Below are positions 4,541-64,000 of a stretch of DNA of 64,000 nucleotides, one piece after another (positions within the stretch are counted from its first letter, which is position 1; the number at the start of each line of letters is the position of its first letter). The translations under genes were made by a program, and so were the position numbers. A model generated the notes under the pieces. The model did not search any database, was not told the DNA's origin, and saw only the letters and a list, made by a program, of their open reading frames with translations. Source of the stretch: Eledone cirrhosa (lineage: Eukaryota); assembly GCA_964016885.1 (NCBI GenBank), contig OZ024740.1, positions 42,904,001 to 42,968,000 of the forward strand, written 5' to 3'.

Positions 4541-4977
4541 TATATATATATGTATATATATCAACTAGGAATTGATTGACATATATATATAAAATAAACA
4601 CATGAAACAATCACAGGAGATAATTTGTAAAGTGTGTAAGCACACACAGCTTGGTAGGTAACTAATTAAAGTTTAACTAGAACTTTAAATATAGATACCT
4701 TTTAAAATGATTAATCTTCCTTGTATATATTCCATTAATGAAATATATTTCACCATTAATCGTAAATCACAGTAGTCAAATCCCGGATTTTTAACTAGAG
4801 ATAAGATTTAACTATCTGTGTTCACAGCAATTGCAAATCTTCGAATGAACCGTCGCACGTGTTGCATTTTTTTAAAAATACACACATCGTACCAGCGTCA
4901 TCCAGTGGCGTGAATATCGACAGCTAGAAATGGCAGCCGAGTCCTTTCAACTGAGTTAGCTCTACAATTATATCCCA

Positions 4978-5143
4978 AATTAAATTAAGGGTATCATGTT
5001 CTAGATATGCGCCATATCCACTGTAGAATATGCTCAAAGATTCCAAATTGATATACAATTCTCTGATCTATTCATTGGAATATTTGAGCATATTCTACAG
5101 TGGATATGGCGCATGTCTCAGACATGACACCCTTAATTTAATT
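4978..5143. repeat. ~165-bp imperfect hairpin (MITE-like or fold-back)
   Basis: aattaaattaagggtatcatg..gctcaaagattcca pairs with tggaatatttgagc..catgacacccttaatttaatt. Confidence 0.8.
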
Positions 5144-13461: not shown

Positions 13462-13620
13462 ATGTGCCACAGTTTGTACAACTCATTTTGGCTAGCTGAG
13501 TGAACTGCAGCAAACTGAAATAAAGTGGCTTGCTCAAGGTCAAAATGTGCGGCCGGGAATCGAAATCGTGACCTTAGGATCATGAACCGAATACACTAAA
13601 CCCTAAGCCACCCACCTTCA
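13462..13620 (-). mobile_element. CORE-type SINE (family 2)
   Basis: Reverse complement: tggcttagggt (A box-like), atttcgattcc (B box), gaccttgagcaagccactttatttcagtttgctgcagttcactcagct. Confidence 0.75.
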
Positions 13621-13791
13621 CAATGGAATTTTAGACATCTTTAAAATATCTGTATGGCTACCACTGGCATACCTTTAAACATATGCTTGCTCAACTGGGA
13701 AAATAAATATAATAATAAAAGAAAGAAAGAAAGATAATAATAAAAAAATAAATATGGTTACAAAAATACGCATGGAGTATATTGTTGAATC

Positions 13792-16428: not shown

Positions 16429-17059
16429 GAGGTGTAGAGAACCACTAGAGTGGATAATATATAGTCTACGAAAAATGTGGAAAATATATAATAATTAAAA
16501 GGTAAATTAAAATGTACAAACCCATTTATATAAGTATAAAACACCTGGACAATCTCAAAGAAGAGAATGTTTTGCCATAAACAGTGTTGACACCATACCT
16601 TCTCAGGGCTCGTCAACAGGTGTAAAAAAGATATAGCGTGGTAGACTTTATATTCTCTACTCTAGTGGTGCACTAGCCCTCATAATTGAAACATACGCAT
16701 TTTTGTGTTTTCTTCTCCGTATACTGTATTATGAAGAGCCCGGTACTTATTCCTTGAGTTCATTAAATTACAGGGGATTAACGCAAGTCTTTAACTCCGT
16801 TTTTTACTTGATATATATATATATATATATATAGTAAGGGGCATTAGAAGAGGTAAATATTTATATTATACTAGCGGAGCTACCCGGCTTCGCTCAGTGT
16901 TAAAAAGCTTATTTAGAAAAGAATAATATTAACATTTTAATCGTTATTTAAAAACTTCTGTAATTTAGTTTCTATTTTTTAGATTTTAACATTTATCTTT
17001 AAATGACTGAATGACTGACGAATTTAAAGAAAATTCGTTATAAGAACATTTAATTTGTT

Positions 17060-18920
17060 TTACTGAAGTGCTTTTGGATACACAATGTTTTTTTGTTTTT
17101 CCTTCTGGTGCGTACACGAATAAATCAGAAGGTTTACCGACGCGTGAGAAAGCCACATACAGCTGTCCATGTGAGAAGCATGGATTTTCTAAATTTAGTC
17201 CACACACTTGTAGCGATTGTCATTGTGCTTTGTTGATAGTCATTGCAAAGGCGAGTCGCACCGGAAACTGCAAACGTTTGAAATCGAATGGCGTATCTGT
17301 TGGAATGATTGGGATGCGTGGCAAGAGTACATCTTCTCCTTTAAATTTTCCATTTAAAATTGTAGCCTCGATGATATTGTTCATCGTCTTTTTCACTGAA
17401 AGTCTGGTACCGTTGCAAAGTTGTGGTGGATTGATGTTTCGGAGAAGGATGATAGGCACGCCAATTTTCAATGTTAAAATGTGCGGTGGCATGCCTGGCA
17501 AATCAAGTGAATTCAAGAATTCAATTGGATAATTGATAATTTCATCTTGATTCATTACAGTATCGATGGACTTATACGTTATCGCTTCACCTGGTATTTC
17601 GTTTTGAATGCTGAAATTAATGGCATTGACATCGGTGTTTTTGGCTGCTAATATAGCACGTACACTGAGCCACTGATGATTTTTGTAATGCTGCGCAATA
17701 TTTGGGAACACTTTGTGAATCAGTTCGTCTCTGGTTGCCGTGATTCTACAGAAGTTTGTTGGCAATGTGATACATTTTGTGGAATCATCGATTACCATTT
17801 TCCCATTCCCAATATCCAGCAATTGTTTTGTGAAACGTTCAGCGGATGCGTCATTTTGTAGTTGTACACGCATATTGTTTTTGAAAGTTAATTTCTGTAC
17901 GTGTCGCCATAAAACTGATGATTTGAGACATGCATTAAGCTCATCAGCGGGTGTTGATCGCGGTATAACTGGTAGAGTTTGTCGAAAATCACCAGACAAT
18001 AAAATGAGAGTGACACCGAAGAGCTGTTCATTTCCTTTCAAATCTTTTAGCGTATTATTAAGCGCTTCCAATGATTTTTTGTGCGCCATAGTACATTCGT
18101 CCCATATAATGATTTTACATGATTGGAGTACTTTACCTATACCAGAATTTTTGGTAATATTGCATGTTGATGTCTCAGCGATTTGCATATTCAATGGCAA
18201 TTTCAGGGCTGAATGTGCTGTTCGGCCACCATCTAAAAGAGTTGCCGCAATTCCAGATGATGCGATTGCCAGTGCAATATTATTTTCTGATCGTATAGTT
18301 GCCAAAATAAGTGAAATGAGAAAAGTTTTGCCTGTACCACCGGGCGCATCTATAAAATACAATCCGCCGCTTTGACTTATAATTGCCTGCATAATTTGGT
18401 CATATACTATGCGTTGTTCTGGTAGCAATTTGGGAAGATTCGTTTGAACAAATGTACCCAATTCGGCGACATCAAAGTTTGTTTCTCGTTGCAAATCACG
18501 ATCGAAAATGTCGTTTACAGATCGATTCGGCGCAGGCATTCCCAATTGTACCAATGTTTTGTTAGCGATTGCTAAACATATGACCTCAATGGAAACCAAT
18601 GCTTCATTATACACATTTGGTGTGAATTGAATATTCATATTTTGATTTGTTGCACGCAAACGATGTAGGATGTCTTCACTCATGTAGTCTTTATATTTTT
18701 CCCAAAGATCTTTTGGATTTGATGGGAAGCACGTTGTCAATATTATTGAGACTAATGTGCGTATTTGCTTTGGTCGAGCAGTATTCGATGCATCAGCGAG
18801 TGAAGTGTCCCAATGTCCATCATTTTCAAGAAGATTTAATTCTTGGCAAGCTTCACGATAAGTGGCACATACTTGACCGTTTACTGTTCTCAATTCTTGG
18901 AATGATGTCGGTCCACGTAT
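17060..18920 (-). pseudogene. PIF1-family helicase of Helitron 1
   Basis: IDAPGGTGKTF, IIWDECTMAHK, GDFRQTLPV, LCNGTRL, FAMTINKAQ*QSL, HGQLYVAFSRV; premature stop at 17220 and terminal frameshift. Confidence 0.93.
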
Positions 18921-19048
18921 GTGTCCAGGTCAGGAAAATAAGGACAGACGAAATGAAGATATCAAATTACAGCACTTAGTTAAGGGCTAGCTGAAAAAGA
19001 ATTCCCTGTAATGGGAGTGGAAGGGAAGTAATGTGAAACAGACACTAT

Positions 19049-19160
19049 ACTAATTCTATTGAAATTATATTAAATTAAAGAGAGAATTTACTAATTCTAT
19101 TGAAATTATATTAAATTAAAGAGAGAATACTAATTCTATTGAAATTATCTTTAATTAAAA
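19049..19160. repeat. ~40-bp tandem repeat x3 inside Helitron 1 5' region
   Basis: actaattctattgaaattatattaaattaaagagagaat repeated. Confidence 0.9.
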
Positions 19161-19829
19161 AAATTTCACACTCGCTCTTTCACTCACTCTTTGTCTATAC
19201 GTTGATTTCTCTTTCTCCGTTTATAGCACTCTCTCTTTGTCTATACGTTGCTCTTTCACTCTCTCTTTGTCTATACGTTGATTTCTCTTTCTCCGTTTAT
19301 AACTTTAGAGACAGTCTAATATAGGGAGTGGTTCAAAGCAGCCAGACTACTCGCTCTTTCACTCTCTGTTTGAATATACGTTTATTTCTCTTTCTCCGTT
19401 TATATTTTTAGACAAACAAACAAACATACATTCATTTTTATATATATAGATTATTTAATTTATTTTGAAAAATTGGTTGAATTTTACTTGTTCTGCTTAT
19501 CTTAATATTAATGTTCTGGTATATCAAATTAATACCATTGAACAACCTTGAATCATAGACAACATATGTATTTCTAGGGGTACTTAGTATCTTTGGACAT
19601 ATTAACTTCATTCATTATACTCCGTTATGTAGAGAACAAATCTGTTGTTCTATTTAGCTGCTATTTTTTTTAGTAGTAATTATAGACAGCAAGTCTGTGG
19701 TTATTCCGCTTTTACTTCGGTCCGGTTTACATACGGGTCACTTTTACGACCTTTCAGACCTGTATTAGCTGGCAGGAGGTCATATATTTTATCGTTCCTG
19801 GGTCGTTTAGCCCTAGAAAAGGAAAATGC

Positions 19830-19907
19830 TTCTCTGATGAGCTTTGGTTTTCCATCAGATATCCATTGGATTCTGGGGTTTTACAAAGCGAAACTGATCA
19901 GTAAGGG
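19830..19907 (+). ncRNA. Type I hammerhead ribozyme, apparently intact
   Basis: ttct CTGATGA gctttg..caaagc GAAA ctgatca GTA aggg; stem III palindrome actgatcagt; predicted cleavage after 19903. Confidence 0.88.
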
Positions 19908-19991
19908 CCATTAGAAGAGGTAAATATTTATATTATATTTTTTAATTTATTTTGAAAAATTGGTTGAATTTTACTTGTTCTGCTTATCTTA

Positions 19992-20113
<122 letters not shown>

Positions 20114-35051: not shown

Positions 35052-36961
35052 ATGGACGACTCAGTGTCACACCTTCCTCACAAACTAACACCTCACACCG
35101 ACAACACCATTGTAAATATTACTACGTTTGCCAACAATAAAAATATAAGCAGTAGCAATATTTTAAATTTGTCTCAGGCAGACATTCATTTCCCGCCCTT
35201 ACCAATGACTGCAGGTGGTAAAGCCGCCATCCCCACCACCACCACAGCGACAACAGAAACAAAAGAAAAAAATAAATTAACTCGTGATATCGAAATGAAT
35301 TCAACCAAAATGAACTCTTCCACATCGAACACCACTCACGCCACCACCACCACAACTGAAACTAAAATTAACAATAACAAAAATAACGATAACAACAACA
35401 GCAACAATGACATTAAGAAAACTACCCTGAGTTTTGCCAGAGTAGCAAAAAAGTGCGAAGCATTTCAGGTAACTCAGTTGGAATTAGAAGAAGCCCCCAA
35501 AATGGTAAAGAAAGATGGGTACAGGGTCAGCCTCACTCCCCCATCCACACACCTAATAAAATGGAGCATTGGCGCCTATGCACCGTCTCTTATCGGACGA
35601 TTAACATAAAATCAGGCCGAGTGGAACGGGCATCCGAGTCCCAAATCCAAAAAGCTTTGGGACATGTGTGGGCAAAAAAAACCCCACATCAGACGTGGGC
35701 AGAAATATGGAATCGTGGACGTGTTCTTTGAAACACCACAGGAGGCCAGAGAACACTCTATGGCCCCATTAAGAAGTGACGACTTCACACTCATCCCAAG
35801 CTATAGTGGATAGAGATTCGTGAAGATCAGGGTGACCCACGTTCCACCGGCCATCGAAATTCCCTGGCTAATAGCTGCCGTCCTCGCCGGCATCGAGGCC
35901 AACACCAAGATAATCGAAATAGCGAAAGAAAAGCATAACTGGTCGGGATCTGGGATGGAGCTCCTGATCCAAGCGGACCAAAAAAGCATTGGGGAGATCC
36001 CAGAGGTAATAGACCTCACTGACGGCAGCCACCTCACCGTAATCGTCGAGGTCAGAAGGCCTAGGTGTGTCGTTTGTGGTGAAGGAACCAACCTAAGGGC
36101 TTTCTGCCCTCAGGCTAAAAGGTTGAGGCTACCTCTCTTACCCACCCCAGTGACTCAACCATCAACACCACCAGCCGCAGAAATGGCAGCAACAACAGAA
36201 GCAACTGTAACAGCAACAACCCCACCAACAGTAGCAAAACCACCACCACCACCACCCAACGCGCCAGAACTAGCACCAGCGCCTACACCATCCACCACGC
36301 CACAACCAAAACCAACGCCTGCGGAGGATTTTCCACTCCACGACCTATCGCAACTGGAGACAGTTTGTGACGACGAGGAGTGGGAAACGGTATCAGTAAA
36401 AATGAAAAAAAGGAAAAAGAAACCAAAAAAGAAAAAAATTCTCTTCCTTCCCCCTCCAAAAACAAAATACAGAGGGAAACATATAAACTATCAAAGAAAA
36501 AAGTTAGGACAGCTATGCCACCATCCACACCAGCATCACCAACCCCATCACCACAAACACCAATACCATCACCATCATTAACCCCAACACCACAAAACTC
36601 ACCAAAAAGCGAAACAGAAACAAACCCACAACAAACGCAAACAAAACAAAACAACCAAAACGATACACACTACACAGCATTAAATTTGAACAACAACCAA
36701 TTATTACACTACATCCAACACAACACCAGCATCACAGAAAAAGACTACACAACAACCCAAAAGTTCACACCACCTGCACACATACAAATCACTCGCATCA
36801 CACAGAAAACGTACACGACACTAAAACAAAAATTCCCCAAAGACATCGGAGACTTCCGACAAGCACTCTCCAGGAGGATTTATAAGGACATCCTTCCGGA
36901 GAGGGCCACAAGCAGTGAAAAGGATGGAGAAAGCATCCTTCCTCTACGAGAAGTAAGGTAA
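35052..36961 (+). pseudogene. Tx1/L1 ORF1 (gag-like), frameshifted
   Basis: LSFARVAK motif, degenerate zinc knuckle CVVCGEGTNLRAFC, Pro/Thr-rich tract, EEWETV..KKRKKK; split over ~4 ORFs. Confidence 0.75.
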
Positions 36962-36995
36962 GTGGTCTTTCCCATCTTTTCCACTCCATTTCAAC

Positions 36996-39900
36996 ATGAC
37001 CTCACTCAGAATAGGCAGCATAAATGCGCGTGGCTTGGTGTCGTCATGGAAGCAGGGCCACCTGCTCAACGACCCCAGGTCACTAAACATAGATGTAGTG
37101 GCCATCAGCGAGACTAGAATCTCCGAAGCACCGGCCTTCGCACCGATCTTCGGCGGTTACGATGTGTATGCATCTCCCAGCCGTCCGGGATCGGGGGGAG
37201 GAGTTGCTGTGCTTTTTCGGAGAGGTTTGGATCTCGCCATACGGGCCATCTTCCTGGACCCAGGGGGTAAGTTGGTGGTGCTGGACGTGACCAGCGGAGA
37301 CGGGCAAGCTTTCAGGCTAGTGGCCGTCTATGCCCCGACAGGAGCAGGGCGGCCTGATTTCTTCCGGCGTTTGGAGACCTTTCTTGGAACGTCCCGCTCT
37401 TTAGTGTTAGTGGGCGACTGGAACGGGATCTTAGATGCACGCTGGGACTGTGTGGGATTAGCGGATAGGGGTGGAGGGTGCAAGAGCCTCACCAACCTGC
37501 TCAGGCGTTTTGAACTGTCTGACAGGTACCGATTGGATTTCCCGAATGTGCCAATGTGGACCTGGACAAATCGGATAGGGTCATCCAGATCATATCTAGA
37601 TAGAGTATTTTGTAGGGAAATAGATAGGTCTAGCATAGGCTGTCCACAATTCAAGTTAGTCAGCTACACGGACCACAAATTCCTGATCTGTGTGCTTGAC
37701 TTAGATAGACTTCATAGACGAGGACCCGGCTACTGGAAGCTAAACGCGTCCTTACCAGCGCACAAGGCCCACAGAGACCGGATTAGCGAACTAGTTAAGC
37801 GGGCGTTGACGGGGGCCATCGTCAACAACAAGTGGTGGTTTGCTATGAAAAGAGCGATTAGAATAGAATCGATTAGGTTTAGTAAGGCTTTAGCAATAGA
37901 GAAAAATAGAGCAGAGGGAGAACTAGTTAGAAAATTAGACGAGACGCTTAGCAAAGGCATTGGGACCGACGTGCTTGCGGCAAAATTGGCCCTTGACCAA
38001 TTCTTCAATGCAAAGCACGAAGGCTGCGTTGTCAGAGCTAGGGTGCGTGCTCTCAGACACGAGGGGACGAAAGCCGTTCAATGGGCCCGAGTGGTGGAGG
38101 CGCGTCGCGGCAACAAAGCCACGATCCTGTCTTTGGTGGACCACGACGGGCGCATGCTACTCGATCCCGGGCAAATGTGTGAAGCTTTTCAGCGACACTT
38201 CGCTCAGCTGTTCGGGGGCAGCGGTGGGCCGGGTCGAGGGATGGACTTTAGTGTCTACCTCGACGGACTGCCGCGGCTCTCGGCCACTGAGGCGGAGTGT
38301 TGCGAAAAGCCGATAACAGCCGCTGAAGTAAGGGAGGCAATGACTGGCTGCACAAGGGGTAAATCGCCTGGTTTGGATGGTCTACCCTATGAACTTTACG
38401 TACAGATGCCAGACTTGTTCGGAGGCCTCTTGTCGGACGTCTACTGCAACTGGCAACAGAACGGGAGAATTCCCAGTTCTGTGAGCCGAGGAGCGGTGGT
38501 ACTGCTGAGAAAGGATCCGAACAAGGGCGATAATATAGATAATTTCCGGCCCATAACTCTGCTAAACACAGAGTTCAAGATTTTGGCTAAGGTGCTAGCA
38601 AAGAGATTGGTGCTTATCGTTTGTGGTCTGGTGGGAGAGGCGCAGACATGCGCCATTCCCGACAGACCCATCCACGACAACCTCCACCTCATGCGATACA
38701 TCGTAGAGAGGGTAGCTAGGGAACCTGGCACGGGTGGGTCCTTGATCAATTTAGATCAGTCGAAAGCTTTCGATAGTGTCGACCATCGTTACCTAGCGGC
38801 AGTCCTGATAGTGGCTGGCTTTGGGCCCGTCTTCAGAGGCTGGATCGCTGCCATGCACAGCGACATCTGCTCTGTGGTGACAGTGAACGGTCACCTTTCG
38901 GAACCGTTCAACATCATGCGCTCGGTCCGCCAAGGATGTCCCCTCTCGTCCCTCTTGTACGTATTGACTCTCGAGCCATTACTGCACAAACTGGAGACGT
39001 TGAGAGGCGTCCCGCGCGAACTAGGATGCGGAAGATCCGTGTCAGCATATGCGGACGATGTCACCGTAGTGGTGTCGAACGCCAAACACATCCAGGCGAT
39101 CGGCACTACACTAAGAGAATACGAAGCGGTGACAGGAGCAACGATCAACCAGGAAAAGACAGTGGGCCTGCAGCTCGGCAGCTGGAGAGGCAGGTCCATG
39201 CCGTCCAACAGCGTCGTCGGACGCTGGACGGACGGACCGGTTAAATTGCTAGGGGTCTGGTTCGGTCGGGACCTCCAGACGGACAAAAACTGGGACGAGG
39301 TGACGAGCAGTGTGGCTTCTCTCACCCAGAAATGGGAGGAGAGGAAGCTATCCCTGAAAGGTTGAGTGGAGATGGCTAACGCGTACATTGCGTCTGTCAT
39401 CTGCTACCGCCTGACCGTCGTACCTTGTCCTAAGCCCCGCCTGACTGCGCTGGAGCGATTGCTCTTTCGCTTTTTGTGGAAGGGACGCGCTCCGATGGTC
39501 AGGCGGTCCATCTGCTGTCAACACCCGCTACGTGGAGGGCTGGGAATGCCGTGGCTGATGATGCGCAGACACGCGCGCAGGCTACGACATCTCCACCTCT
39601 TCCTCGACGGTGATCAGGTGTGGTCACCGTTTGCTAGACACGTATTTCCCCAGCTCGTTTCCTTGACGGAGCTGCAGTCTTGGGTCAAGCGAAGACCGAG
39701 GGGGAGCACCTGGAGACTGGAATGTCTTCAGGCGCTCACAGCCCTCGACCAATCGGGCAATGTGATCGGTGGAATTACCACCTCGGCGTTCTATAGAGGA
39801 TTAGTGGAGGGGAAGAGCGACGAAAATCAACTAGCCAATCTAGTTGATCTAGGCGTTGACGAAAATCAACTAGCCAATCTCTTCGGAAGAACTTTCGGGC

Positions 39901-46288: not shown

Positions 46289-46332
<44 letters not shown>

Positions 46333-46338
<6 letters not shown>

Positions 46339-46482
46339 CGTCCCTTCACGCACAAGGCGCCAAGGTACGCATGTATTGTCCAACCAAGTGCCAATGTGGT
46401 TCAATGGCGGGTTAATAAATTAGTAGGTAAAGTCAATTTTTTAAAATTTACTTTGAAACTTTTTCATTATTTACTAAACCTT

Positions 46483-46488
<6 letters not shown>
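46333..46488. mobile_element. Rearranged fragment of the ~485-nt HHR family (inverted body piece + 3' end) between (TA)n tracts
   Basis: 46333-46422 is the reverse complement of ~63575-63665; 46421-46488 matches 63977-64000 and 63515-63560. Confidence 0.8.
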
Positions 46489-46546
<58 letters not shown>

Positions 46547-48387: not shown

Positions 48388-49856
48388 AATTTTTCAATGA
48401 TTGACTACATACATGACCTCTTTTCCAACACAAGAGACATACAGATACATATGTATATATCGATGCACAGTGGGTTGACATCCATTATTATATTTTTGCA
48501 TGGCAATTTAAATTCAAAAATTAAAATAATATTAAAACAAAATTAAAGTTAAAATACAACATCGGCAGTTTACGAAGATCATTCAAGAGGATAGTTTGTT
48601 AGTCAGTTGAAGTAGTTAGTGCATGCAATAGCTACACGTGGGGCATGCACGTGTGTCTTATTTATAAAATATTATTGTGCGGCAAGATAATATGCAATAC
48701 AAGCACTTTAAACGGGTAATCAAGTGTATTATGGAGGTTGTAGTGGTAAAGAACTTTTTGTGTATGATAAAGTAGCTTGTGTGCAGAGAAATATTATAAA
48801 TGAGAAGCAAAATAATGTTATGGTTTTTGTATACACCACCATTTTCACAATCCAGGAAACGTAATATATAGTTTATATGTCCTTCACATAATTAACGATG
48901 ATTCAGTATTGGATGTTTGATGTATTAAGTTAAATTATTACAGCTTGTTGCGTCTCAGTGTTCTTTAATCCAATTTTATAGAGTTGGTTGTTTTTGTTGC
49001 GAGAATTTACATCGTTTCATTTTCCGGAAGTATGTGTGTGATTAAGGGGAGTTAATGCGTGAGGGGAGGTAACTAGCTGATTTTTATGACTATATTTATT
49101 CCAATGTACATTAAAAGGTGTCTCAATTGAGTCCCTTATATATATGGTTATATACAGTTTCCAAATTTAAGTTTCCTATCTTTAAATTACAGTCTACTCT
49201 ATCAAGAAGTACTAAAGGTATCTATATTAGGAAGATTACTCCCTATCATAGAGTGCTACAACTGAATATTGCATACGAAGAGTCAGATCTCCATATCAAT
49301 GTTCTTTGTAAATGTAGTCTACTCACAGAACCTGACAGGGTCTTATTAGAACCACGTCTATATATAACCCCTGGTAAGCTCTGCGTCAGCGCATGGCTGA
49401 TTGCATGGCAAAGTTAAATATCTCGAGGGTAGACCAAAGAGCAATTCTGACTTACAATGTCATTAATCTGTCTATCAAGTTATACATGTATGTATAACTC
49501 ATATACCACTTGTACATAATTCATTGTATTCAACATATATGTTATATAGCTCTTTTATGTTAACAAATTAATCTTCTATTTATCTAATGATAGCACTCCA
49601 TACATACAACAATTGCACAAATAATTCAGTGTTTAAAGTTTACATATAATTATATAGTGATATAATGTATTCTAAGTAATTGAAGGTAATTATACTAAAA
49701 GTAGGTGTACATGGGGATATTTCTAGGGTAAAAGGTTTTAGATAGATGTCACGAATTGTGTTAAGATAGGGTGGATCATTGAGTGTGGAGTTGCGGTGTA
49801 AGGTGTGCCCTTGAGGTGTGTTGCTAGAAGTGGGGATGGGTTCAAGTCTGACATTG

Positions 49857-52005
49857 CTATATATTGGGTTTAAAGTTTTGGAAGGAGTGTCGGAAGCGGT
49901 GCTGGCATGACGCGAACACTTCTGATGTTTTATTAAGGAGGTTATGGTTAGAGAAGATAATAGTATGGGTCTCTAGTAGACAGAGGTTACAAAATTTATT
50001 AGGTGGTTTGTACGATGTCGCTTTACCTACCACTTTCCATTTAAGTGTTTCAGATCTATTTTTAGTTTTTAGATAGTGTATGTAGCTAGATAGTGGAGTG
50101 GAATTGCCTAGACTGTGTTTTTTGAAAGAATGGAGGTGCGAATTGCATCTGGTTTTGAAGCAGTTTGAAGTAGAGCCTATATAGGTTTCAGAAGAGTTGC
50201 TAGTTGTGACGGTGCATGAGTATATGATATCATTGATTAAGCATTTTTTATCTAAAGGGCAGGTTCTATTAGAATTACAGTTACAATTATTTTGGATGTT
50301 AGCCTGCCGGTTATTATGTTGTGTAGAAGTCTGGATGGTAGCTGTAGGATTATGGTTATGGGGGTTGTCGATCCCAGCGTTATTGCTTACACTATTGCTA
50401 TTACTATTATTACTATTGTTATCAGGGATAGTTGATATAATGTTATTTTGAAGGTTTACCCCCTGTTGTGATTTTGTTTGTTGGAAGTAAGAATTAATTT
50501 TTCTTTTATTGCTACTAGCTATCTGGTATGCTATGTTAGGCGTGGTAGAGTAGGAGATTTTAATTGTGTTTTTGTTTAAAAGGCTATGGTACTTGTGGCC
50601 AGATGGGAAGTGTTTATCTAGGAGTGAGAAGAAAGCCTTAGGTAGGTTGGTAGAGACGTTTAGATTGAAAGGAGGGTTGAAAAATGTATTATTTCTTCTT
50701 CTATTTTTGTTTTTTATGTCTGGTGAGTTGTTTCCGTTTATGGTACTATGGTAACTTCTGTGGTGTGGGTTACGTTTGTTGGCATCCTTCGTATTAGTGT
50801 GTGTGTGGTTGCTATTCTTATTACTAATTTTCCTCATGGACATATTGTGCGAAATAATGTTGTAGCTATGTGTTTTTGTAGGTAGGAACTCGATCTCTAT
50901 ATTATGGCCTGATCTAGCTAATGCCTGATTATAATATTGCGAGTTTTTGCTAAATATGTTTACGTCATAGGATAGATTAGAGATTCTATTGGATACTCCC
51001 TTAGAGATAGAGTTTAATATTGATCTAGGGTGGTTAGACTTGGTATCTACGTAAATCAGTTTTTCGTTAGGTTTATGGAAAGGTGTATATGTCCTTGAGT
51101 CTAGGTAGAGGGTGGCGTCTAGGAAGTTAACGTTTTTAGTGTTTTTGACTATGGTGATAGTAAGTTTATAGTTTTTGAAAGTCTTGTGCAATAGTTTTCT
51201 AGTTCTTTCTATATTGAATTTTTTATAGTCTATAAGTAGAAGTGCATCATCGCGGAACAAACCACCGTTGAGGTATGGAAGGTCCTTATGGATTTCGTTA
51301 AGTAAATATAGGCCGACCAAATCAGTGACCTGCGCCGAGTCACTAGATCCCATGGTTATGTCGAAGTTGTTTTGCGTATCCTTGCGGGTCCATAATTGGT
51401 CTTCAAACGTGATTACGGTTTTACGGGCCGCACGTATGACATCAATCTGAGGTCTAGTCAGGTCACTATTGTCATGGCCATGATTAGTGCCTTATTTAAT
51501 AGGATAGGGGAAATAGAGGTGTAGTATGAATTGATATCAACTTGAATACATTTTTTATCATTGTTTTCCTTGATATCTTTGAACCATTCAATAACTTCAC
51601 CCGTATTTCCCCATTGTTTAAGGTATATCTTGTTTTTAATCTGTGGGATGATTTTATCTAAAATTTTCTTACTGATAATGCCAATGTCAGACTTGGAAGG
51701 GCAGATAAGTGTAATCGAGGGGTTGCTAATGAAGTCCTCCTTATAGTCCTTCAGAGAGAATCTAGGGGGGTTCAGGGTATATGGTTGTGTATGTCTCTGA
51801 AGTCCTAGTTTGGACACTATATTATAGCCTTCCATATTAATATCTTCCAAGTTTTTCATAGTAGTTTTCTTGTAGCTTTTATGTAGTTCATTATATATAA
51901 ACTTTCTATATGTATTATAATCTAGGCTGTATATGTTATTAGTTTTGTCCGCATGTACAATAATTTTATTACTAGTTTTGAATTCATTAATACAGGTGTT
52001 AAGTT
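49857..52005 (-). mobile_element. Penelope-like retroelement 1 (RT + GIY-YIG endonuclease), 5'-truncated, disrupted near 51455
   Basis: ADKT, QVDINSYY, MGSSDS, FRDD, VNFLD, SNHP; CNC..CPL..CL, IIYSC..YIGST..R..H..E GIY-YIG. Confidence 0.9.
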
Positions 52006-52278
52006 ATATATGCATGTGTGTGTGTGTATGTGTGTATTTTAGTATGTGTGGGTGCTTACTCTGAAGTGTGAGCAGACGTGTGAAGTACTGAACCCAGCAT
52101 GACTCCATTGAAATGTGTAGGACGGAAAATGGTTGATGAACCGTGTGGCAGCAGATACTGACCAGAACTTGTGAAGAGTAAAAACAGCCAATGGCATGAC
52201 AAGAATGGAAATAGGGTTGTTTGAGGGGTTTTTTGATGATAACACCCCGGTGATAAAATTTGCTCCGGACGAAACACC

Positions 52279-52374
52279 CGTGTCTGAAAGAACCCGACCC
52301 GCAGAAGTAGAATCAGACAGATCCATACAAGGACCATGACTCGAGCTACATGCCGGCGAAACATTGGTAACACG
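52279..52374 (+). ncRNA. Type I hammerhead-like motif, decayed, in a non-coding element (52040-52412) abutting (TA)n
   Basis: cgtgt CTGAAAGA acc..ggc GAAA cattg GTA acacg; perfect 5-bp stem I. Confidence 0.5.
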
Positions 52375-52411
52375 AAATGCATCAGATGCATCACTGATTT
52401 TTCGTTTTCTT

Positions 52412-53089
<678 letters not shown>

Positions 53090-53571: not shown

Positions 53572-54177
53572 CCATTACAGTTTAGAACAACGACAAATCT
53601 TCTCTCTCTATAATAGATCATTCACCCTCTTCGTTCGTCATACATCAAATATCAAAATTTAAAAAGCCGATAACACTAAATACATACTGCTCTCTCAACG
53701 TTACATTTTACATCAAATAACAAATATTCAAAAGCTACAGATGAATTTATAAAACAACAAACGTAACAATTATGACGCTTAAGCGTTCATTTACTTGAAT
53801 CTCAACAACGACATTATATTTTATTGTTGTCCTTTTTGTAATTTTCTTTCTTTGTTTTTCTCAATATGAGACAAAAAATTAATGAGAAAACTTTTTTCAC
53901 GAACGTCCGATTTTGATGATTTATTTTCCAGTGTACTCCAAAATTACGCCCCTGTTTACGCTCTTTTGTGCTATAACTCAGACAGGCTTGGCTTACAGGT
54001 TTGACCTATTATTTGACGTGCATTCTTCATAGATCTTACTTAGTACTCACTTTCCACTTACTCACCGTTCAATTGAAAGTTTTGGCTACCCCTTTCATGC
54101 TCCATTACCTGCATAAATATTTACGTGTTCGGTCCTGCTACAACATAGTTCTCACTTGAAACTAATTCAAAGTTCAT

Positions 54178-57100
54178 TTGCCAGCCAAAAAAAGACCACG
54201 ACTTAGTCGCCAAACTAAAGCTGCTTCTGCTGCCAAACGAAGAAGTGCTACAGTGTTGTCCGTAGAAAAATTGATTCGGTTGTCACAAAATTCAATTCGA
54301 AAGGCAATTACCCGGGCAACCGAAACAGAAAAATACAGGAGCATCCGCCTTTCCGGAAATGAATTTGTAACTGCAGTTGCACGTGCAGCGCAAACTTATG
54401 AACAACATTCTCGACGACGAAGCAAAAATGCGGCCTCCACCGCTGCGGCACGTGACGGTGAGGACGAAGAACACCGTTCCAGACGTCAACGTACGGACGC
54501 CGCTTCAACAGCTTCCGTTCGCGCATCAGAGACTGAGCAAATTCAATTACAAAGGCTAAACGCCAACGCACTCCGCAGGAGTGCTAAACAAGGTACACAG
54601 AGGATCAGTTGCACTCAGTGGCCTCATAAGACTTTCCACTATGACCCAACAGTAAACTATGCACTGATGCCAGAAGTTCAGATTGGATCCATGTCTGTCA
54701 TTTGCCAATATTGTCGGGCAAAAAAATAGCCTGGGGAAACTTCAGGGATGTGCTGCTCTGATGGCAAAATGAGACTGCCTCCTCTACAGGAACCACCACA
54801 ACCTTTGAAGTCTCTACTCACCGGTGCTACAGCAGAGTCGGAACACTTCCTTCGATGTTCCAGGAGGTACAACCCTGCCTTCTAAATGACCTCTTTCGGA
54901 GCTGACATACGCGAGGACGGCTTACCACAGAATCGGTTCGCTACTGCACACGACAGACGGACAGCCCCAGTTCCTACAGCTATACTTTGTCACTGACTAT
55001 TTGGACCAAGCGGAACGACGCGCTTCAATTTCGCCTGACACAGACATGAAAATTCTGTTGCAACTCGAGAGAATGCTGCACGAAAACAACAACTACATTC
55101 GCAGTTTTAAATGCGCATTGGAGGCTGCTCCGTTGCCAAATTTTGCTTTTATAATCGACGCTGACAGGAAACCACCAGGCACCCACGCCGGGCGTTTTAA
55201 CACTCCCACGTGCAATGAAATAGCTGTGCTTCTTCATGGAGAACAGTACAACACGTGGGACACCATACTTCAGTGTAGGGACAATAGTCTACAACGGATC
55301 AGCGAGACGCATAGGTCCTACGACGCATTCCAATATCCCCTACTTTTCCCATTAAGTGACGACGGATACCACTTTGGAATTCCTTTGTGCAACAGCAACA
55401 AACCTGTTTCCTCTATGCAATTCTACACCTACCGATTCATGGTCCGCGTATGCTGCTTTAACCACCTCCACCGTGCAAGAGTACTCTTCAACCAGCTAGC
55501 TGTAGACGCGTGCGCAAAGATAGAATCTGAAAGGCTGTGCTACATAAGGAACAATCAAGCACGCCTTCGTTCGGACAGCTACATTCACTTACGGGATGGA
55601 GTAAGGAATGACGTCGATCCCGAGAACCTAGGAAAACATTGTATCCTTCCGTCGATCTTCATTGGGAGTCCCCGATACATGAGTGAACGCACACAGGATG
55701 CTTTGACGTACGTGCGTCTCTACGGCAGACTGGATCTCTTCATCACTTCAACATGCAACCCTAAGTGGAGTTAAATTACCGCGGAATTATTCCCTGGACA
55801 AAGGGCGTCAGACAGACACGACCTTACGGCACGAGACTTTCACTTGAACTCCTAAAATCAGGTAAGGCCTTTGGACCTGATAGGTGCTACGTATACACCG
55901 TGGAGTGGCGAAAGAGAGGCCTGCCACACGCTCACCTACTCATTTGGCTGATAACGAAAATCAACGCAAGCAGCATTGACAGCATCATTTCAGCAGAAAT
56001 ACCCGACCCCAAATTGGGCAGATAACTCCACAACATCGTCACTGCTCACATGGTTCATGGTCCATGCGGAAACGGTTTCAACATGAATTATCCATGCATT
56101 AAAGAAAGAAGGTGCACCAAGAGGTATCCTAGGCCATTCCTCCGACAAACTCGGACAGGTGGCGACGGTTATCCATTATACCGCCGCAGGGAGCCAGCAG
56201 ACGGAGGAATTGTTGCGAAAACACCACATCACAACGTCAACAACCGGTGAATTGTACTCTACTTCCCACTTCTGATTAAATTGTTTAACGCCCACATTAA
56301 CGTTGAATACTGCCACTCCGTCAGATTGATAAAGTACGTCTGCAAGTATATCAATAAGGTGTCCGATGCTGCGTCCTTTGGTCTTACAATGGAGAACAAC
56401 CGAGACAAAGTAACTCGATACCAGATCGGCCGATACATCAGCAGCAATGAAACGATCTGGCGATTCTTCCGCTTTGCAATACCCCCAAATCAAACAGTTG
56501 GCGGTGCACCTTAAAAACGGTCAAAGAGTCTACTTCACCGCCTCCACCGCTGCTGAGATAGCAGAGAAACCCAAGAACACCACACTTACGGCATTTTTTA
56601 AGTTATGCCGAAACGATCCCTTCACCAAGACTCTCTTCTACTCTCAGGTGCCATCATACTACATGGAACACAAACAGCAGAATTTGGTTAAGAAGGGTGA
56701 AAGGACAACCCGTCGAGGGACATCCAGACATTAAAATGTCTCCTACCCTTGGGAGAGTGTACACTATTCATCCTAACCAACAGGAAGTCTTTTATCTCTG
56801 CTTGCTACTGTATGAGGTGGTAGGACAGACATCTTTTGACGATCTGAAAACAATCAACGGAAAGGTTTGTACTTCATTACGCGCAGCCTGCCTTAGACGG
56901 GTTCTACTGGAAGATGAAGCTCAATGGGCTGCGACATTGGCGGAGGCAGCTACAATACGCTTAGCGCGAACTCTTCGGCGAATCTATGCGGTGCTACTGC
57001 AGACATGCAAGTTAAGCGACCCTGCATCCTAATGGGACAAATACAAAGAGGACCTTTCCGATGACTACATACACTAAGGACAACTGCTACTCCCCCATTC

Positions 57101-58571
57101 CGACGTACGACTCAGCGACGAATTCTTCAACAAAGCTCTCATTTACATCGAAAACAAAATCCTAACTGCCGGCGGAAATGACCTTCCAACGAAAACGAGC
57201 CAAAATTGTTGCAGGACCAACGGCAGGCGTATGACACAGTTTGTACTTCCATTCGTCAACGCAGAGGAGGTATATTCTTTTTGGATGCCCCAGGAGGAAC
57301 TGGTGAAACATTCGTCAGTAAAATCCTCCTCGCCAAAGTGCGACAGCAGAAAGGAATCGCCCTGGCTGTGGCTTCTTCTGGCATTGCCGCAACTCTGCTG
57401 CCCGGAGGTAGGACAGCTCATTCCGCATTTAAACTACCATTCAACACGACTTCAGACGACACAATAACCTGCAATATCACCAAGGACTCTGTCAAAGCGG
57501 AAGTCTTGAAAATATCCCACCTAATTGTGTGGGACGAATGCACAATGGCCCATAAAAGGTCCCTTGAGGCGTTAGACATGACCCTACGAGACATCAGGGA
57601 ATGCAACCGGCCAATGGGAGGAATACCTCTACTGCTGTCTGGCGATTTTAGACAAACTCTTCCAGTTGTTCCAAAAGCCACCAGGGCCAACACTGTGGGG
57701 GCTTGCATTATGTCATCTCCCCTGTGGAAGGAAGTGACAATCCTGACCCTCACAACAAACATGAGAGCCCAACTGCTCGGCGACCCCTCAGCAGCCGACT
57801 TCTCAAAAGACCTCTTAACAGTTGGTGACGACATTGCACCTTCAGCTGCAGCTGGAGAAATGGCAGTCTCGCAAGTAGACACCGTTGTCGACACTGTTGA
57901 CGACCTCACAGCCTCTGTCTTTCCCAATATGGCGACCAACTACAAAAAACATGAGTTGGCTGTGCGATAGAGCCATATTGGCTCCCAAAAATGTCCCCGT
58001 TGCAAAAGTCAATGAGGACCTTCTGCAACGCATTCCTGGAAACCTCCGTACCTACAAATCTGTGGTCAAAGTTGTGGACAAAGATGAGGTTGACGATTTT
58101 CTCACAGAATCCTCAGTTCCTTGGACCTCTCTGGACTGCCACCTCATGAACTGCGCGTCAAAGTTGGGACTCCAGTGATGCTGTTGAGGAACCTGGAACC
58201 ACCACGTCTCTGCAACAGAACACGGTTAGTGGTAAGAAACCTCCTGCCGCATGTAATTGAAGACACAATTCTCACGGGATGCGGCGCTGGAGAAAACGTC
58301 TTCATACCCAGAATACCATAAATTTCATCAGGTACCGAATGCCCCTGTACTCTGCGCCGACTTCAATTCCCCGTTAAACTTTACTTCGCGATGTCAATCA
58401 ACAAGTCCCAAGACCAAACGCTATCAACAGCAGGCCTGCATTTAGCCCAGCCGTGATTCTCACACGGCCAATTATACGTCACATGCTCAAGAGTTGGATG
58501 CAAACAGAACTTATTCATACTTGCGCCCAAAGGCTGGAACAAAAAATGTGGTCTACAGAGAGGTGTTGTGA
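54178..58571 (+). pseudogene. Helitron Rep (HUH) + PIF1 helicase, many stops and frameshifts
   Basis: CQYC..CC zinc motif; LFITSTCNPKW, VEWRKRGLPHAHLLI, YVCKYINK; LDAPGGTGETF, IVWDECTMAHK, GDFRQTLPV, FAMSINKSQ. Confidence 0.92.
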
Positions 58572-59528: not shown

Positions 59529-59746
59529 TAAAATATATTTGAGCACATGAATGTCTATATTTATTAATATTTTGAAGTAATATTATATATATATATATAA
59601 ATATATATATTAGAAAGTGAGGTTTTTTTACAAAATGAAAAATAACCGAGGTGTCCTACACGAGTGAAAGTATAAAGAAAAAAAGATGAAATCGAAAATG
59701 CAAGTGGAGTCTTATTTTAAAAAATATATATATATTTATTTGTTTC

Positions 59747-59782
59747 CTTTACCGGTTTCGCAGTTCTTCTGCTTTTCAAAAG
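59747..59782 (-). ncRNA. Minimal type I hammerhead, U3-A8 variant (3' pLTR)
   Basis: ctt TTGAAAA gcag aagaa ctgc GAAA ccg GTA aag. Confidence 0.72.
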
Positions 59783-60501
59783 TAAAGTTGAGTTGGAGGG
59801 TCTGTGGTTTTTCTCACATCTGGTTGGTCTCTGAATGTTACTTGTTTTATATTGAAAAAGTGGCTCGAAATGCTAGGTTTTTCGAGAAGTAATTTGATTG
59901 GTTGGTCAATAATTATAATAAATTACGCGCCAGTTCGCGTTACAAAGTTCTTCAAAGAAGAGGGGGGGGTGTCACAGGTTTAAAAAAAGGGGGCTCACGA
60001 AGGCTTTTTTTTAATAAACGTAATTTGATTGGTTATAAATGAAATTATGGCTGTCAAGTGAAAAAGTTTTCATTAGATTTTCGCGCCCTTATTTGGAAAT
60101 CGATTCTGTAGCCTCTTTAGAGAATTTTATGATAAGTAATAGATAATGGTCAAGAGAAATGGGATGGAAGAATTGTTCTGGTTCAATGAATATGGTTAGT
60201 TCGCTGGGGTATCAGAATTCAGATGTTATATTGAATAAAGAAAGTAAAGATATGTATGTATATTTGTGTGCTTGTGTGTGTGTATTTGAATTTCTTTTTA
60301 CTTTAAAAAAATGGGGCTCACGATGGCTTTTTTTTAATAAACGTAATTTGATTGGTTATAAATAAAATTATGGCTGTCACGTGAATAAGTTTTCATTAAA
60401 TATTCGCGTCCTTATTTGAATATGGTTAGTTCGCTGGTGTGTCACAATTCAGATTTTCTATTGAATAAAGAAAGTAAAGATATGTATGTTTATTTGTGTG
60501 C

Positions 60502-60539
<38 letters not shown>

Positions 60540-62413
60540 TGGAAGATGATTCTATTAGTAGAAATGGGGGAGGGAGTTGTGTGTGTGTATATGGGTGTTA
60601 TGTGTGTGGGAGTATGTTAAGATGGAGAGAATATATATTTTGTGTGTGTGTATATAAGTGTGTAGGAAAGTGATTCTATTAGTAGAAATGGGGGAGGGGA
60701 GTTGTGTGTGCGAGGGTGAGGGTTGTTATGTGTGTGTATGGGTGTTATGTGTGTGGGAGTATGGTTAGCATGTTAAGATGAAGAGAATATATATATATAT
60801 TGTGTGTGTGTGCGTGTGTGTGTGTGTAGGAAAATGATTCCTTGATTAGGAATATTTTTGAATAAACATATTTTCCTTACTTATTCGTATTTGTTCTGTT
60901 GTATTGTCAGTGCAAACGTATGTTAAGGTTTATTTAGTCCGGGTTTTTATTTTCTAAAGTAGAAGGTGTTATGTGTGTGTGTATGTATCTGTTTGGATGG
61001 TTAGCATGTTATGTTGTTGACATAATGTATATTAAACCATATTTAATGCTGGTCTATATTTTTGAATAAACATATTTTCCTTATTTATTCGTATTTGTTC
61101 TGTTGTATTGTTAGCGCAAAGGTAAAATGGGAAGACTTGGAATTTGGGTGTCTTATTACTTGCGCATATGTCTAGATGTGCGCTTAATGGTATCTGTCTC
61201 GTGGTTTGATCTCGTAATTGTTGGCGATGAACTGTCATTCTATTTCTGAGTGTGAGTTTAGTTTGTCCTATATAATCTTCATGGCATAAACTAGATTTTT
61301 GATGAGCAAGTGAAGTGATTTTTTACAGTAAAATTGTGTCCTGATTTAAATGTATACGTGTTGCCTTCAATGAGGTGAATGCAGGTTCCACAATTAGAGC
61401 GACCACATTTTTTGACACTTGGTTGTGGGTTTGTGGCAGGTAATTTGGCATTGGTGAGTAATGTTTTCAGTGATTTCGGTTGTCTTTTGCTTTTGATTAT
61501 TTTGTGTGTTTCAAGGGCTTTTTCACCTTGGGTTTTGTTTTAGTAGTGGGATGTTCTTGTGAATAATGTTGTAAGCTTCCGCATTTCTTGGGCTGTGTGT
61601 TGAGATATATGATAGAATATTGGACATACCTTGACTTTGTTTCTGTTTTCGTAATTCATCAATGCCTATTGCTTTAGCCCTTTCTATTCCATTATTTATT
61701 AGTAATAGTGGTTACTCTCTTTCGAGTAGAATTTCCTTTAATTCTTGAAGTCTTTTATTTCGCGTTTCATAATTGGAGACAATTGTGCAAATTCTTCTTG
61801 CTAGGTTAAAAGGAATGTTCGTCTTCGTGTGCTTTGGATGGTTGGAGGTCAATAGCAGGTATTGTTTGGAATCTGTTGGTTTGTAGTGTATGTCAGTTTC
61901 AATATTTGTGTCTTTTTTTAAGATTAAGATGTCCAGAAATGGGAGTTGATCTTGGCTGTATTCCATTGTGAATTGGATGTGGTTATTGATGCCGTTTATT
62001 AAGTTTTTGAATTCCTTCAGTTGGTCGAGTGTGTGGGACTAAAGAATGAGACAATCATCCAAGTAGCGTTTCCAATTCTCTGATAAATATTTGTAGAAGT
62101 TCAATCCGTATTTTGATTTGGACTGTTCATATATCTGGACTTCTAAGTATGCCATGACTAAGTTTTAAGTAAAAAGAAATTCAAACACTCATATATGAAA
62201 AAACAACCTGTGACCCCCCCCCCCCCCCCCCCCCCTTGTCTGAAGAACTTTTATAACGCGAATTGGCGCGAAATTTATTATAATTATTGACCAACCAATC
62301 AAATTACTTCTCGAAAAACCTGGCATTTCGAGCCACTTTTTCCATATAAAACAAGTAACATTCAGAGACCAACCAGATGTGAGAAAAACCACAGACCCTC
62401 CATCTCAACTCTA

Positions 62414-62449
62414 CTTTTGAAAAGCAGAAGAACTGCGAAACCGGTAAAG
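62414..62449 (+). ncRNA. Minimal type I hammerhead, U3-A8 variant (inverted pLTR)
   Basis: Identical motif to 59747-59782; AATAAA follows. Confidence 0.72.
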
Positions 62450-62518
62450 GAACCAAATAAATATATACATTTTTTTAAAAATAAGACTCTAGTTGCATTT
62501 TCAATTTCATCTTTTTTT

Positions 62519-62581
<63 letters not shown>

Positions 62582-62734: not shown

Positions 62735-62883
62735 ATAAGAAATACCAAATACATGCGTAACGGTAAACTTATAAATTCAAATTACTACATCAATAATAGT
62801 ATTAATGAAAAAGAAATAAAGGGGGACAGATGGAAAGGAGAGGGAAAAAATATTTATATATATACATGTATACATATATATGT

Positions 62884-63165
62884 GGAGGCACGCGGCCTAG
62901 TGGTAAGAGTGTTGGACTTACGATCATAATGTCATGAGTTCGATTCCTGGGTGTCGTGTTGTGTTCTTGAGCAAAACACTTCATTTCACGTTGCTCCAGT
63001 ATACTTTCAGGACATGAGTACCAGCATTAGCTGGAGGTTTAACCCTACGATGGACTGGCGTCCTGTTCAGGGGGGAGTCTTGTACTCTCAGTCGCTTCAC
63101 GCCATGAAACCGGGATAAGCACTTGCCAAATGAGCCTTCTGGCTTAAGACAGACTTTAGACCTTT
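62884..63165 (+). mobile_element. tRNA-derived CORE-type SINE (family 2)
   Basis: A box cggcctagtgg, B box gttcgattcc, CORE-like gtgttcttgagcaaaacacttcatttcac. Confidence 0.82.
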
Positions 63166-63273: not shown

Positions 63274-63338
<65 letters not shown>

Positions 63339-63406
63339 CAAGGTTTAGCAAATAATGAAAAAGTTTCAAAATAAATTTAAAAAAATTAACTTTACTTACT
63401 ATAGTT

Positions 63407-63490
63407 ACCTTTACCGAATCGGTTTCGAATCTCAAAAATAAACGGAGACCATACGGCCTTCGTTGCAAAGAAAGATGCTCGTCAGAAGGT
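63407..63490 (-). ncRNA. Type I hammerhead ribozyme, core intact
   Basis: acctt CTGACGA gcatct..agattc GAAA ccgattcg GTA aaggt. Confidence 0.85.
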
Positions 63491-63889
63491 TCTTTTCATT
63501 CGAAGAATATAAAAAAATTTATTTTGAAACTTTTTCATTATTTGCTAAACCTTGATTATATATGTTCTGGCTCGTTAATTTATTAATCTGCCATTGAACC
63601 ACATTGACATATGGTTGGACAATACATGTGTCCCTTAGCGCCTTTTGCGTGTAGGAACACATATCCTATTATTACTATCCTCCTCTAAGTTGAGAAAAAA
63701 AATTTGGTCATTCCGACTACTGCTAGCGATAGTGGTGGCCGATTGACCTACCCCCCTCTGCCTCTATCTTTACTTTCGGCCCTTGAAAAAATTGATTCCA
63801 CTTCATTTACTCTCATCTCGGGAACAGTTTTGGATAGCGCTAGTTCGTAATTTAAATTCAAGAATTTTATATTCTTCGAATGAAAAGAT

Positions 63890-63970
63890 CCTTCTGACGA
63901 GAATCTTTCTTTGCAACGAAGGCCGTATGGTCTCCGTTTATTTTTGAGATTCGAAACCGATCGGTAAAGG
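63890..63970 (+). ncRNA. Type I hammerhead ribozyme, apparently intact
   Basis: cctt CTGACGA gaatct..agattc GAAA ccgatcg GTA aagg; stem III palindrome accgatcggt; predicted cleavage after 63966. Confidence 0.9.
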
Positions 63971-64000
63971 TAACTATAGTAAGTAAAGATAATTTTTTAA

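Follow-up and report, generated by a model that had tools for sequence, protein, structure and literature searches.

The window analysed here, a 64,000-nt stretch of Eledone cirrhosa DNA, is AT-rich and microsatellite-rich and contains many retroelement and Helitron frames; from its frame motifs, we take 54166-57970 to hold fragments of a second Helitron-like element. Element B (63330-64000) lies at the end of the window and consists of a unit with a hammerhead ribozyme (HHR) and an inverted 5' arm. The window also contains a sister element (A), a third copy in two pieces (C), and two relics of Penelope-like elements (PLEs), as listed in Table 1. A short repeat located between microsatellites (62880-63165) is 70% identical over 120 nt to 13504-13622. 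This repeat is presumably SINE-like, and ARAGORN called no tRNA in it.

Table 1. Positions of the elements, their parts and neighbouring features in the window
Feature	Position	Strand	Remarks
Element A 5' piece	16834..16870	+	begins at GUA cut triplet, preceded by (TA)n
Helitron-like insertion splitting A	16871..19450	-	ends TC and CTAG, flanked by A and T; frame for PIF1 helicase
Element A	19451..19995	+	487-nt unit 19457-19943, tail to (TA)n
Lock segment A	19708..19721	+	counterpart of B lock
Element A HHR	19830..19907	+	core 19834-19903, predicted cut after 19903
Copy C inverted piece	46329..46422	-	84% identical to 63576-63669, ends in (TA)n
Copy C tail piece	46421..46492	+	ends in (TA)n at family 3' end
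Hydra-like PLE relic	49857..52042	-	RT plus C-terminal GIY-YIG; two frames, 544 and 181 aa
Neptune-like PLE relic	59671..62525	-	broken RT and GIY-YIG frames, CX4CX2C linker; ~0.8 kb from element B
Element B inverted 5' arm	63330..63514	-	last ~134 nt of unit and first 49 nt of next, then (TA)n
Arm HHR copy	63407..63490	-	helix I of 5 bp, helix II with one mismatch, palindrome with a 1-nt insertion
Element B unit	63515..63998	+	484 nt, GC 36%, non-coding
Tail hairpin 3' arm	63538..63547	+	predicted to pair with 63977-63986, p ~0.9
UA-rich, mostly unpaired linker	63554..63563	+	family 3' end joined to (TA)n; putative priming site
Conserved hairpin (body start)	63564..63599	+	from fold and A/B alignment
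Hairpin	63626..63662	+	two-sided change in copy C; second (TA)n junction at 3' foot
Long hairpin	63706..63748	+	p 0.99; counterpart 19643-19691 in A
Lock segment B	63765..63779	+	predicted to pair with 63957-63960 and 63963-63972 across cut site
Element B HHR, type I	63890..63970	+	core 63894-63966, predicted cut after 63966

The longest ATG frame on the + strand of element B has 25 codons, and the GC content is below 50% in both units (33% in A). An HHR descriptor that demands four helix I pairs was applied to both strands of the window and matched twice, at the cores of B and A; on 200 block shuffles it gave a mean of 0.005 loose matches and no strict ones. The HHR that the initial annotation had placed at 63890-63970 is thereby confirmed as a motif. 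Both HHRs contain the type I core (CUGANGA, GAAA, UH, and three helices with helix I open), and GUA is the usual hammerhead cut triplet. The direct HHR of element B has a helix I of 4 bp, a helix II of 7 bp followed by an extended hairpin, and a helix III of 3 bp inside a 10-nt palindrome (63956-63965). Self-cleavage of the two hammerheads is predicted from the motif. Rfam called neither of them, since no match in the window reached the gathering score and the matches by E-value were microsatellite-driven or due to chance; this miss may be due to the long helix II domain. With the HHRs of A, B and B's arm taken together, pairing is seen in 41 of 45 cells. Both sides are changed in 6 of the 15 pairs, a value reached by 3 of 500 shuffles, the structure having been read from these same sequences, which represent two independent lineages only. 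The 10-nt palindromes of stem III are each exactly self-complementary, and the compensatory pair seen there earlier is indeed a two-sided change, from C-G to U-A. The palindrome is not a special feature, however, because a short palindromic helix III has already been described for metazoan and PLE hammerheads (PMC4209133).

The inverted copy of the HHR and 3' end reported in front of the unit proved to be made of two segments. When inverted, 63380-63514 is 97.0% identical to 63865-63998 over 135 columns, and 63330-63378 is 100% identical to 63515-63563 over 49 nt. The proposed period of ~484 nt is borne out by this arm and by junctions in sequencing contigs, whereas the direct repeat on which it had been based is represented in the window by only two bases of the next + strand unit (63999-64000). 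Two HHR copies are present as described, but they are on opposite strands and not in tandem. Their near-intactness holds with reservations: the arm HHR has the helix II mismatch and the palindrome insertion, and the direct HHR is without the fifth helix I pair. The base that completes this pair, as in B's arm, is present in 27 contigs of sequencing run X1. Since the HHRs of element B are arranged head to head on opposite strands, neither release of a monomer nor excision would be possible from this locus, and no locus in the window has two complete HHRs in tandem.

A read-through RNA of element B is predicted to form a 131-bp duplex between the arms that buries both HHRs, and copy C likewise has an inverted 5'-truncated piece beside its 5' end. 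The inverted arm might thus be a feature kept to make long dsRNA for editing or small-RNA control. We regard this as most improbable, since A has no arm, the length and breakpoints of the arm differ between B and C, the HHR in the arm is damaged, and the same shape is found in a PLE relic unrelated to the family. The predicted read-through dsRNA is rather a by-product of the shape of one insertion. An inverted 5' arm is the usual geometry of PLE insertions (PMC8557442) and is repeated by the adjoining PLE relic, so that the arm, which the initial annotation had singled out, is an ordinary PLE feature, as is the palindrome.

Unit B is a diverged relative of the 487-nt element at 19457-19943, as had been supposed (local alignment z 9.7, 0/1000 shuffles). 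The alignment gave z 6.9 without the HHR and z 7.1 for the body start; the middle was weak (z 2.6, 10/1000 shuffles), and the post-cut arm alone was not significant (z 0.4, 348/1000 shuffles). Depending on the aligner, A and B are identical in 49-56% of all columns. When the Helitron-like insertion is set aside, element A runs from a GUA cut triplet through one 487-nt unit into a 92-nt tail. It comprises 1.2 units with one HHR and no inverted arm, and its sequence returns to the start of the unit after 487 nt without an intervening ORF. The insertion carries a terminal hairpin in addition to its TC and CTAG ends, which we take to be Helitron termini; since it lies inside element A, it is younger than the insertion of A. 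A profile of A and B recovered A, B, B's arm and C in the window and no further family member.

Family contigs were obtained from four of 15 listed sequencing runs (X1, 795; X4, 1; X5, 2; X6, 26). X1 and X6 have a study and organism label in common, and X1 may be the source of the window. Because the X1 depth is uneven along the unit, its parts cannot be ranked by depth. Three X1 rows join 63997/63998 to 63515/63517, corresponding to a period of 484-485, and one X6 row makes a unit-to-unit junction through a diverged arm; among the contig pieces listed, none spans a whole unit. A 436-nt X6 contig with a depth of 73 follows 63701-63872 and then has 255 unlike letters in place of the HHR; it is possibly another subfamily or a flank. 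The HHR pattern had no match in metagenomes, and the body pattern had no locus in viral contigs. Body-pattern loci recorded elsewhere (14 metagenome, 16 prokaryote genomes) were rejected as chance, with a best blastn E of 0.5, no HHR and no (TA)n.

The units contain no RT plus GIY-YIG frame, and a coding remnant was rejected; 120 PLE-like proteins searched by tblastn against A, B, B's arm and C gave nothing better than E 0.13. This result bears on the possibility that the units are what remains of the pseudo-LTRs of two related autonomous PLEs, in which the fold was selected in the parents and the units were never mobile alone. The shape of the HHR, with its long helix II and short helix I, is nearer to the PLE than to the canonical retrozyme type (PMC4209133), and Xenopus retrozymes align with pLTRs (bioRxiv 10.64898/2026.07.22.740005), both of which would fit such an origin. 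We nevertheless consider it unlikely, since A closes on itself without an ORF, the unit junction is seen again in B's arm and in contigs, and PLE-like proteins leave no trace in the units beyond the above E. A Pol III B-box-like word in helix II of B was rejected, being absent from A by eye, and the window contains no tRNA gene. A splice-donor-like word was seen by eye at roughly corresponding positions in the three tail hairpins (63979-63988 in B, 19917-19926 in A, 46423-46432 in C); no acceptor common to A, B and C was found for it. PLEs can carry a 5' intron.

The 3' end of the family is fixed. In A, B's arm and C, (TA)n sets in at one and the same point, and at least 12 X1 contigs exit the unit after 63563 into (AT)n, among the 14 of 89 loose ends listed. 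A second 3' end lies ~100 nt further on, not 30-40, and is supported by copy C and one contig: the pieces of C end in (TA)n at the equivalents of both points (after 63563 and after 63661), and at least one X6 contig exits after 63661 into (AT)n, again among the 14 of 89 loose ends listed. Insertion into (TA)n is thus seen in A, in B's arm, at both ends of C and in at least 12 contigs. The first 3' end is offset from the cut by 75-82 nt in B's arm and by 88-92 nt in A, the ranges reflecting TA ambiguity. The 5' starts vary: that of A coincides with the GUA cut triplet, and those of the direct pieces lie 33 nt (B) and ~11 nt (C) past the cut. A 5' end at the cut is seen in a single instance, A, and there the G of GUA, a base upstream of the cut, is included. 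The inverted 5'-truncated arm, the fixed internal 3' end and the insertion into (TA)n are marks of PLEs. The sequences thus establish a unit with an HHR, a fixed 3' end in (TA)n, an inverted arm and many copies.

The same geometry has been reported for PLEs, which insert at (TA)n as partial tandems, with a tail and, at the 5' end, a 5'-truncated copy in inverted orientation (PMC8557442). Their hammerheads have a long helix II, a short helix I and a palindromic helix III, and occur in pairs on opposite strands 100-700 bp apart (PMC4209133). In a Poseidon PLE, the HHR cuts at +26 and the RT starts at +111 to +118, that is 85-92 nt later, and the PLE protein nicks and extends both strands (PMC11167929). 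Within the window, the Neptune-like relic has an inverted 300-bp arm of its own (62226-62525, 94%) ending in (TA)n, and its 3' end lies 76-79 nt after the cut. Its minimal U3-A8 HHR, recognized by eye and missed by the descriptor, would be cut after 59750 (-) and 62446 (+), and its GIY-YIG frame has an E of 3.2e-5, above the Pfam cut-off. This relic serves as an in-window control for the PLE geometry and represents a candidate partner clade. The Hydra-like relic, a candidate for a second partner clade, has 503 relatives, the best of which is 38% identical, and carries the motifs DKT, CxCX5C, CxxC and CxH. No CUGANGA core was found around it in 48500-53000, and no Hydra-like loci were found in viral contigs. 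The labels Neptune-like and Hydra-like rest on motifs and not on a tree. Neither of the two relics compared has a clear DNA likeness to A or B: the score against the Hydra-like relic was reached by 16-85 of 100 shuffles, and in the comparison with the Neptune-like relic the values were 13/1000 (A) and 201/1000 (B) for the tail, and 23/200 and 6/200 for the 3' region.

A and B were folded independently and gave the same helix order: tail hairpin, UA-rich linker, conserved hairpin, two long hairpins, a helix over the cut site (hereafter the lock), further hairpins and extended helix II. Folding was better than that of shuffled sequences for both B (z -2.9) and A (z -4.7), with 0/100 shuffles reaching either. 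The body of A folds well on the HHR strand and not on the opposite one (z -4.3 vs -0.7), and that of B gave -3.4 vs -2.1; among 60 control strand-windows, 6 were as low as the B body and 4 as low as the A body. The HHR regions taken locally fold no better than shuffles (z -0.49 and -1.25), and in local folds the HHR form lies above the minimum by 2.1 (B) and 6.4 (A) kcal/mol. Separately, the control windows 4801-5120, 36801-37120 and 38401-38720 showed folding z values of -10.4, -5.1 and -8.3.

The strong pairs of each unit were then sought in the fold of the other. In sequence-only alignments with a 2-nt slip, 79/121 and 88/114 strong pairs of A recurred in the fold of B, and 73/82 and 71/79 of those of B recurred in the fold of A. 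Nulls preserving identical columns, indels and substitution types retained a mean of 12-19%, and the observed 65-90% was reached by 0/30 of them in each of four tests. Two other alignments retained 71/109 and 63/121 pairs, and 60/79 and 58/85. Column-level pairing tests between A and B were mixed (P 0.0005-0.25 over eight comparisons), with two-sided changes significant at P<0.05 in one of the eight. Among the within-family variants (40 of 74 places listed), 16 fall at paired sites and 11 keep pairing; 6 break a pair vs 9.8 expected (P 0.073), and two of the pair-breaking ones fall in end pairs of the lock. Copy C differs from B at 15 positions, 4 of which are at paired sites, and all 4 stay canonical. 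The weak column-level and within-family tests, together with control windows that fold equally well, would fit a shared fold that is an artefact of AT/GU-rich sequence and alignment, with the HHR alone being selected. This is very unlikely in our judgement, since the stringent nulls never reached the observed retention, the body of A folds well on the HHR strand only, and the paired-site changes in copy C all stay canonical. Selection at the level of RNA structure, which had been suggested from helix III, is therefore supported and appears to be wider than suggested, extending over the whole unit. The evidence consists of predicted structure from two independent lineages and one fragment; at that level, a multi-helix fold shared by units that are ~50-56% identical is new here.

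In both units, the lock is predicted to cover the palindrome, the cut site and the 3' strand of helix I. Its pairing has p 0.79-1.0 vs p 0.0 for helix I, and it ends at the same offset, 266, in A and B. The 13 positions shared by the two lock helices are all paired in A as well as in B; 6 of them differ, 1 on both sides. In B, the lock is seen in the ensemble and is missing from the single minimum-energy fold. Taken by itself, the lock duplex does not exceed chance (180/1000 and 65/1000 shuffles), so its weight lies in the identical placement and the retained pairing. Once the unit is complete, the predicted shared fold would hide helix III, the cut site and the helix I 3' strand, so that the HHR would not be free to fold in either monomer. 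By contrast, the HHR is reported to stay free in most circles of animal retrozymes, with the exception of some mussel ones, and plant retrozymes and viroids block it by a complementary segment (PMC7229834).

From these results, it is quite probable that the family is a non-coding, non-autonomous, retrozyme-like element that relies in trans on a Penelope-like RT/GIY-YIG protein for its copying, with the ~485-nt fold selected for the spread of the element itself. The PLE protein would nick (TA)n DNA and prime at an internal site of the RNA, namely the unpaired UA-rich linker that follows the tail hairpin, 75-92 nt downstream of the cut. The head-to-head inverted arm would arise when both nicked strands serve as primers. 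The template may be a linear, cut 'unit plus tail' RNA, a proposal to which we give an even chance; here the upstream HHR would be unlocked and cut, while the downstream HHR would be locked. The start of A at the cut and those of the direct pieces of B and C after it fit such a template.

A circular template is a possibility that we hold with some doubt. In the classical animal retrozyme cycle, a tandem transcript would be cut by its HHRs into monomers, a host ligase would close them into circles, and a PLE RT would copy the circle for more than one round; the lock would splint the cut ends for ligation and stop the circle from being cut again. This cycle has the PLE partner in common with the explanation given above and differs in the form of the template. 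Several features of the units fit this cycle: the pairing of the lock is continuous across the cut site, the circular fold equals the linear fold, the unit length is held at 484-487, contigs contain head-to-tail junctions, and the 5' end of A takes in a base upstream of the cut. Circles have moreover been demonstrated in coral, mussel and axolotl, with ligation by RtcB in vitro (PMC7229834). On the other hand, no locus in view has two complete tandem HHRs, and a circular template would not explain why A starts within 3 nt of the cut and B 33 nt after it. We regard this cycle as possible rather than probable; the evidence between linear and circular templates is one clean case, the 5' end of A. 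With regard to cleavage in related elements, 8 of 9 retrozyme dimers tested did not cleave (bioRxiv 10.64898/2026.07.22.740005), and insertion by a PLE protein in vitro can dispense with HHR cutting (PMC11167929).

Returning to the element copied in trans by a PLE protein, a more speculative extension, rather unlikely as a whole, is that the entire 485-nt fold is a conserved switch of a Penelope-dependent RNA. The lock would silence the downstream HHR and the unlocked upstream HHR would set the 5' end (or the lock would splint a viroid-like circle), and a hairpin would offer the UA template to nicked (TA)n, in a manner resembling telomerase RNA and its primer. If this were true, PLE hammerheads would gain a definite job in vivo. 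The function of the HHR in endonuclease-bearing PLEs is called still unclear in PMC8557442, and PMC7229834 leaves unexplained how animal retrozyme circles escape re-cutting. The two half-identical subfamilies with one predicted fold, lock and priming point provide natural compensatory variants and a 485-nt test substrate.

To the initial annotation, the analysis adds a link to PLEs, the lock helix, a fixed 3' end, the Helitron inside element A and a third copy. A search of the openly available literature listed no paper on these units, nor on a fold that spans the whole unit and includes a lock conserved between distant subfamilies. A squid genome gave 235 hammerhead matches, which are counted there without analysis (PMC6962438). 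Animal retrozymes have been argued to be non-autonomous PLE derivatives, mainly on vertebrate evidence (bioRxiv 10.64898/2026.07.22.740005), and the present family adds insertion-site evidence to this link.

The units resemble animal non-LTR retrozymes (PMC7229834; bioRxiv 10.64898/2026.07.22.740005) in being non-coding, with GC <50%, a unit of a few hundred nt and one type I HHR, and in being highly self-paired and located beside autonomous PLEs. Their length of 484-487 nt compares with ~170-400 nt for invertebrate retrozymes (51-972 bp in the preprint). They differ in that no two complete tandem HHRs are in view and helix II consists of 6-7 bp and a long extension. Blocking of the HHR is also predicted, which among animals is reported in PMC7229834 only for some mussel circles. 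The family is retrozyme-like and would work like a retrozyme, but we do not class it as one in the strict sense. With Neptune, Hydra and Poseidon PLEs and their pLTR hammerheads (PMC8557442, PMC4209133, PMC11167929), the units share the inverted 5'-truncated arm, the partial tandem, the (TA)n target, a 3' end ~80-90 nt past the HHR cut, a second downstream end and the palindromic helix III; unlike PLEs, they have no RT or endonuclease frame. Their 3' end coincides with a UA-rich linker that may be able to pair with the target, whereas the RT start site of the Poseidon element in vitro is not homologous to its target (PMC11167929). As in plant LTR retrozymes and hammerhead viroids, whose finished RNA blocks the ribozyme with a segment complementary to it (PMC7229834), such blocking is predicted here, but the HHR is of type I and not type III, LTR features are absent and the ends are of the PLE type. 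Non-autonomous PLEs of Chlamys, such as MRC1, are likewise protein-less, pLTR-like, head-to-tail insertions moved by a PLE; in contrast to the present units, the host is a green alga, most Chlamys elements were found to have no canonical HHR, and the non-autonomous ones have 3' sequence in common with a known partner (PMC8557442).
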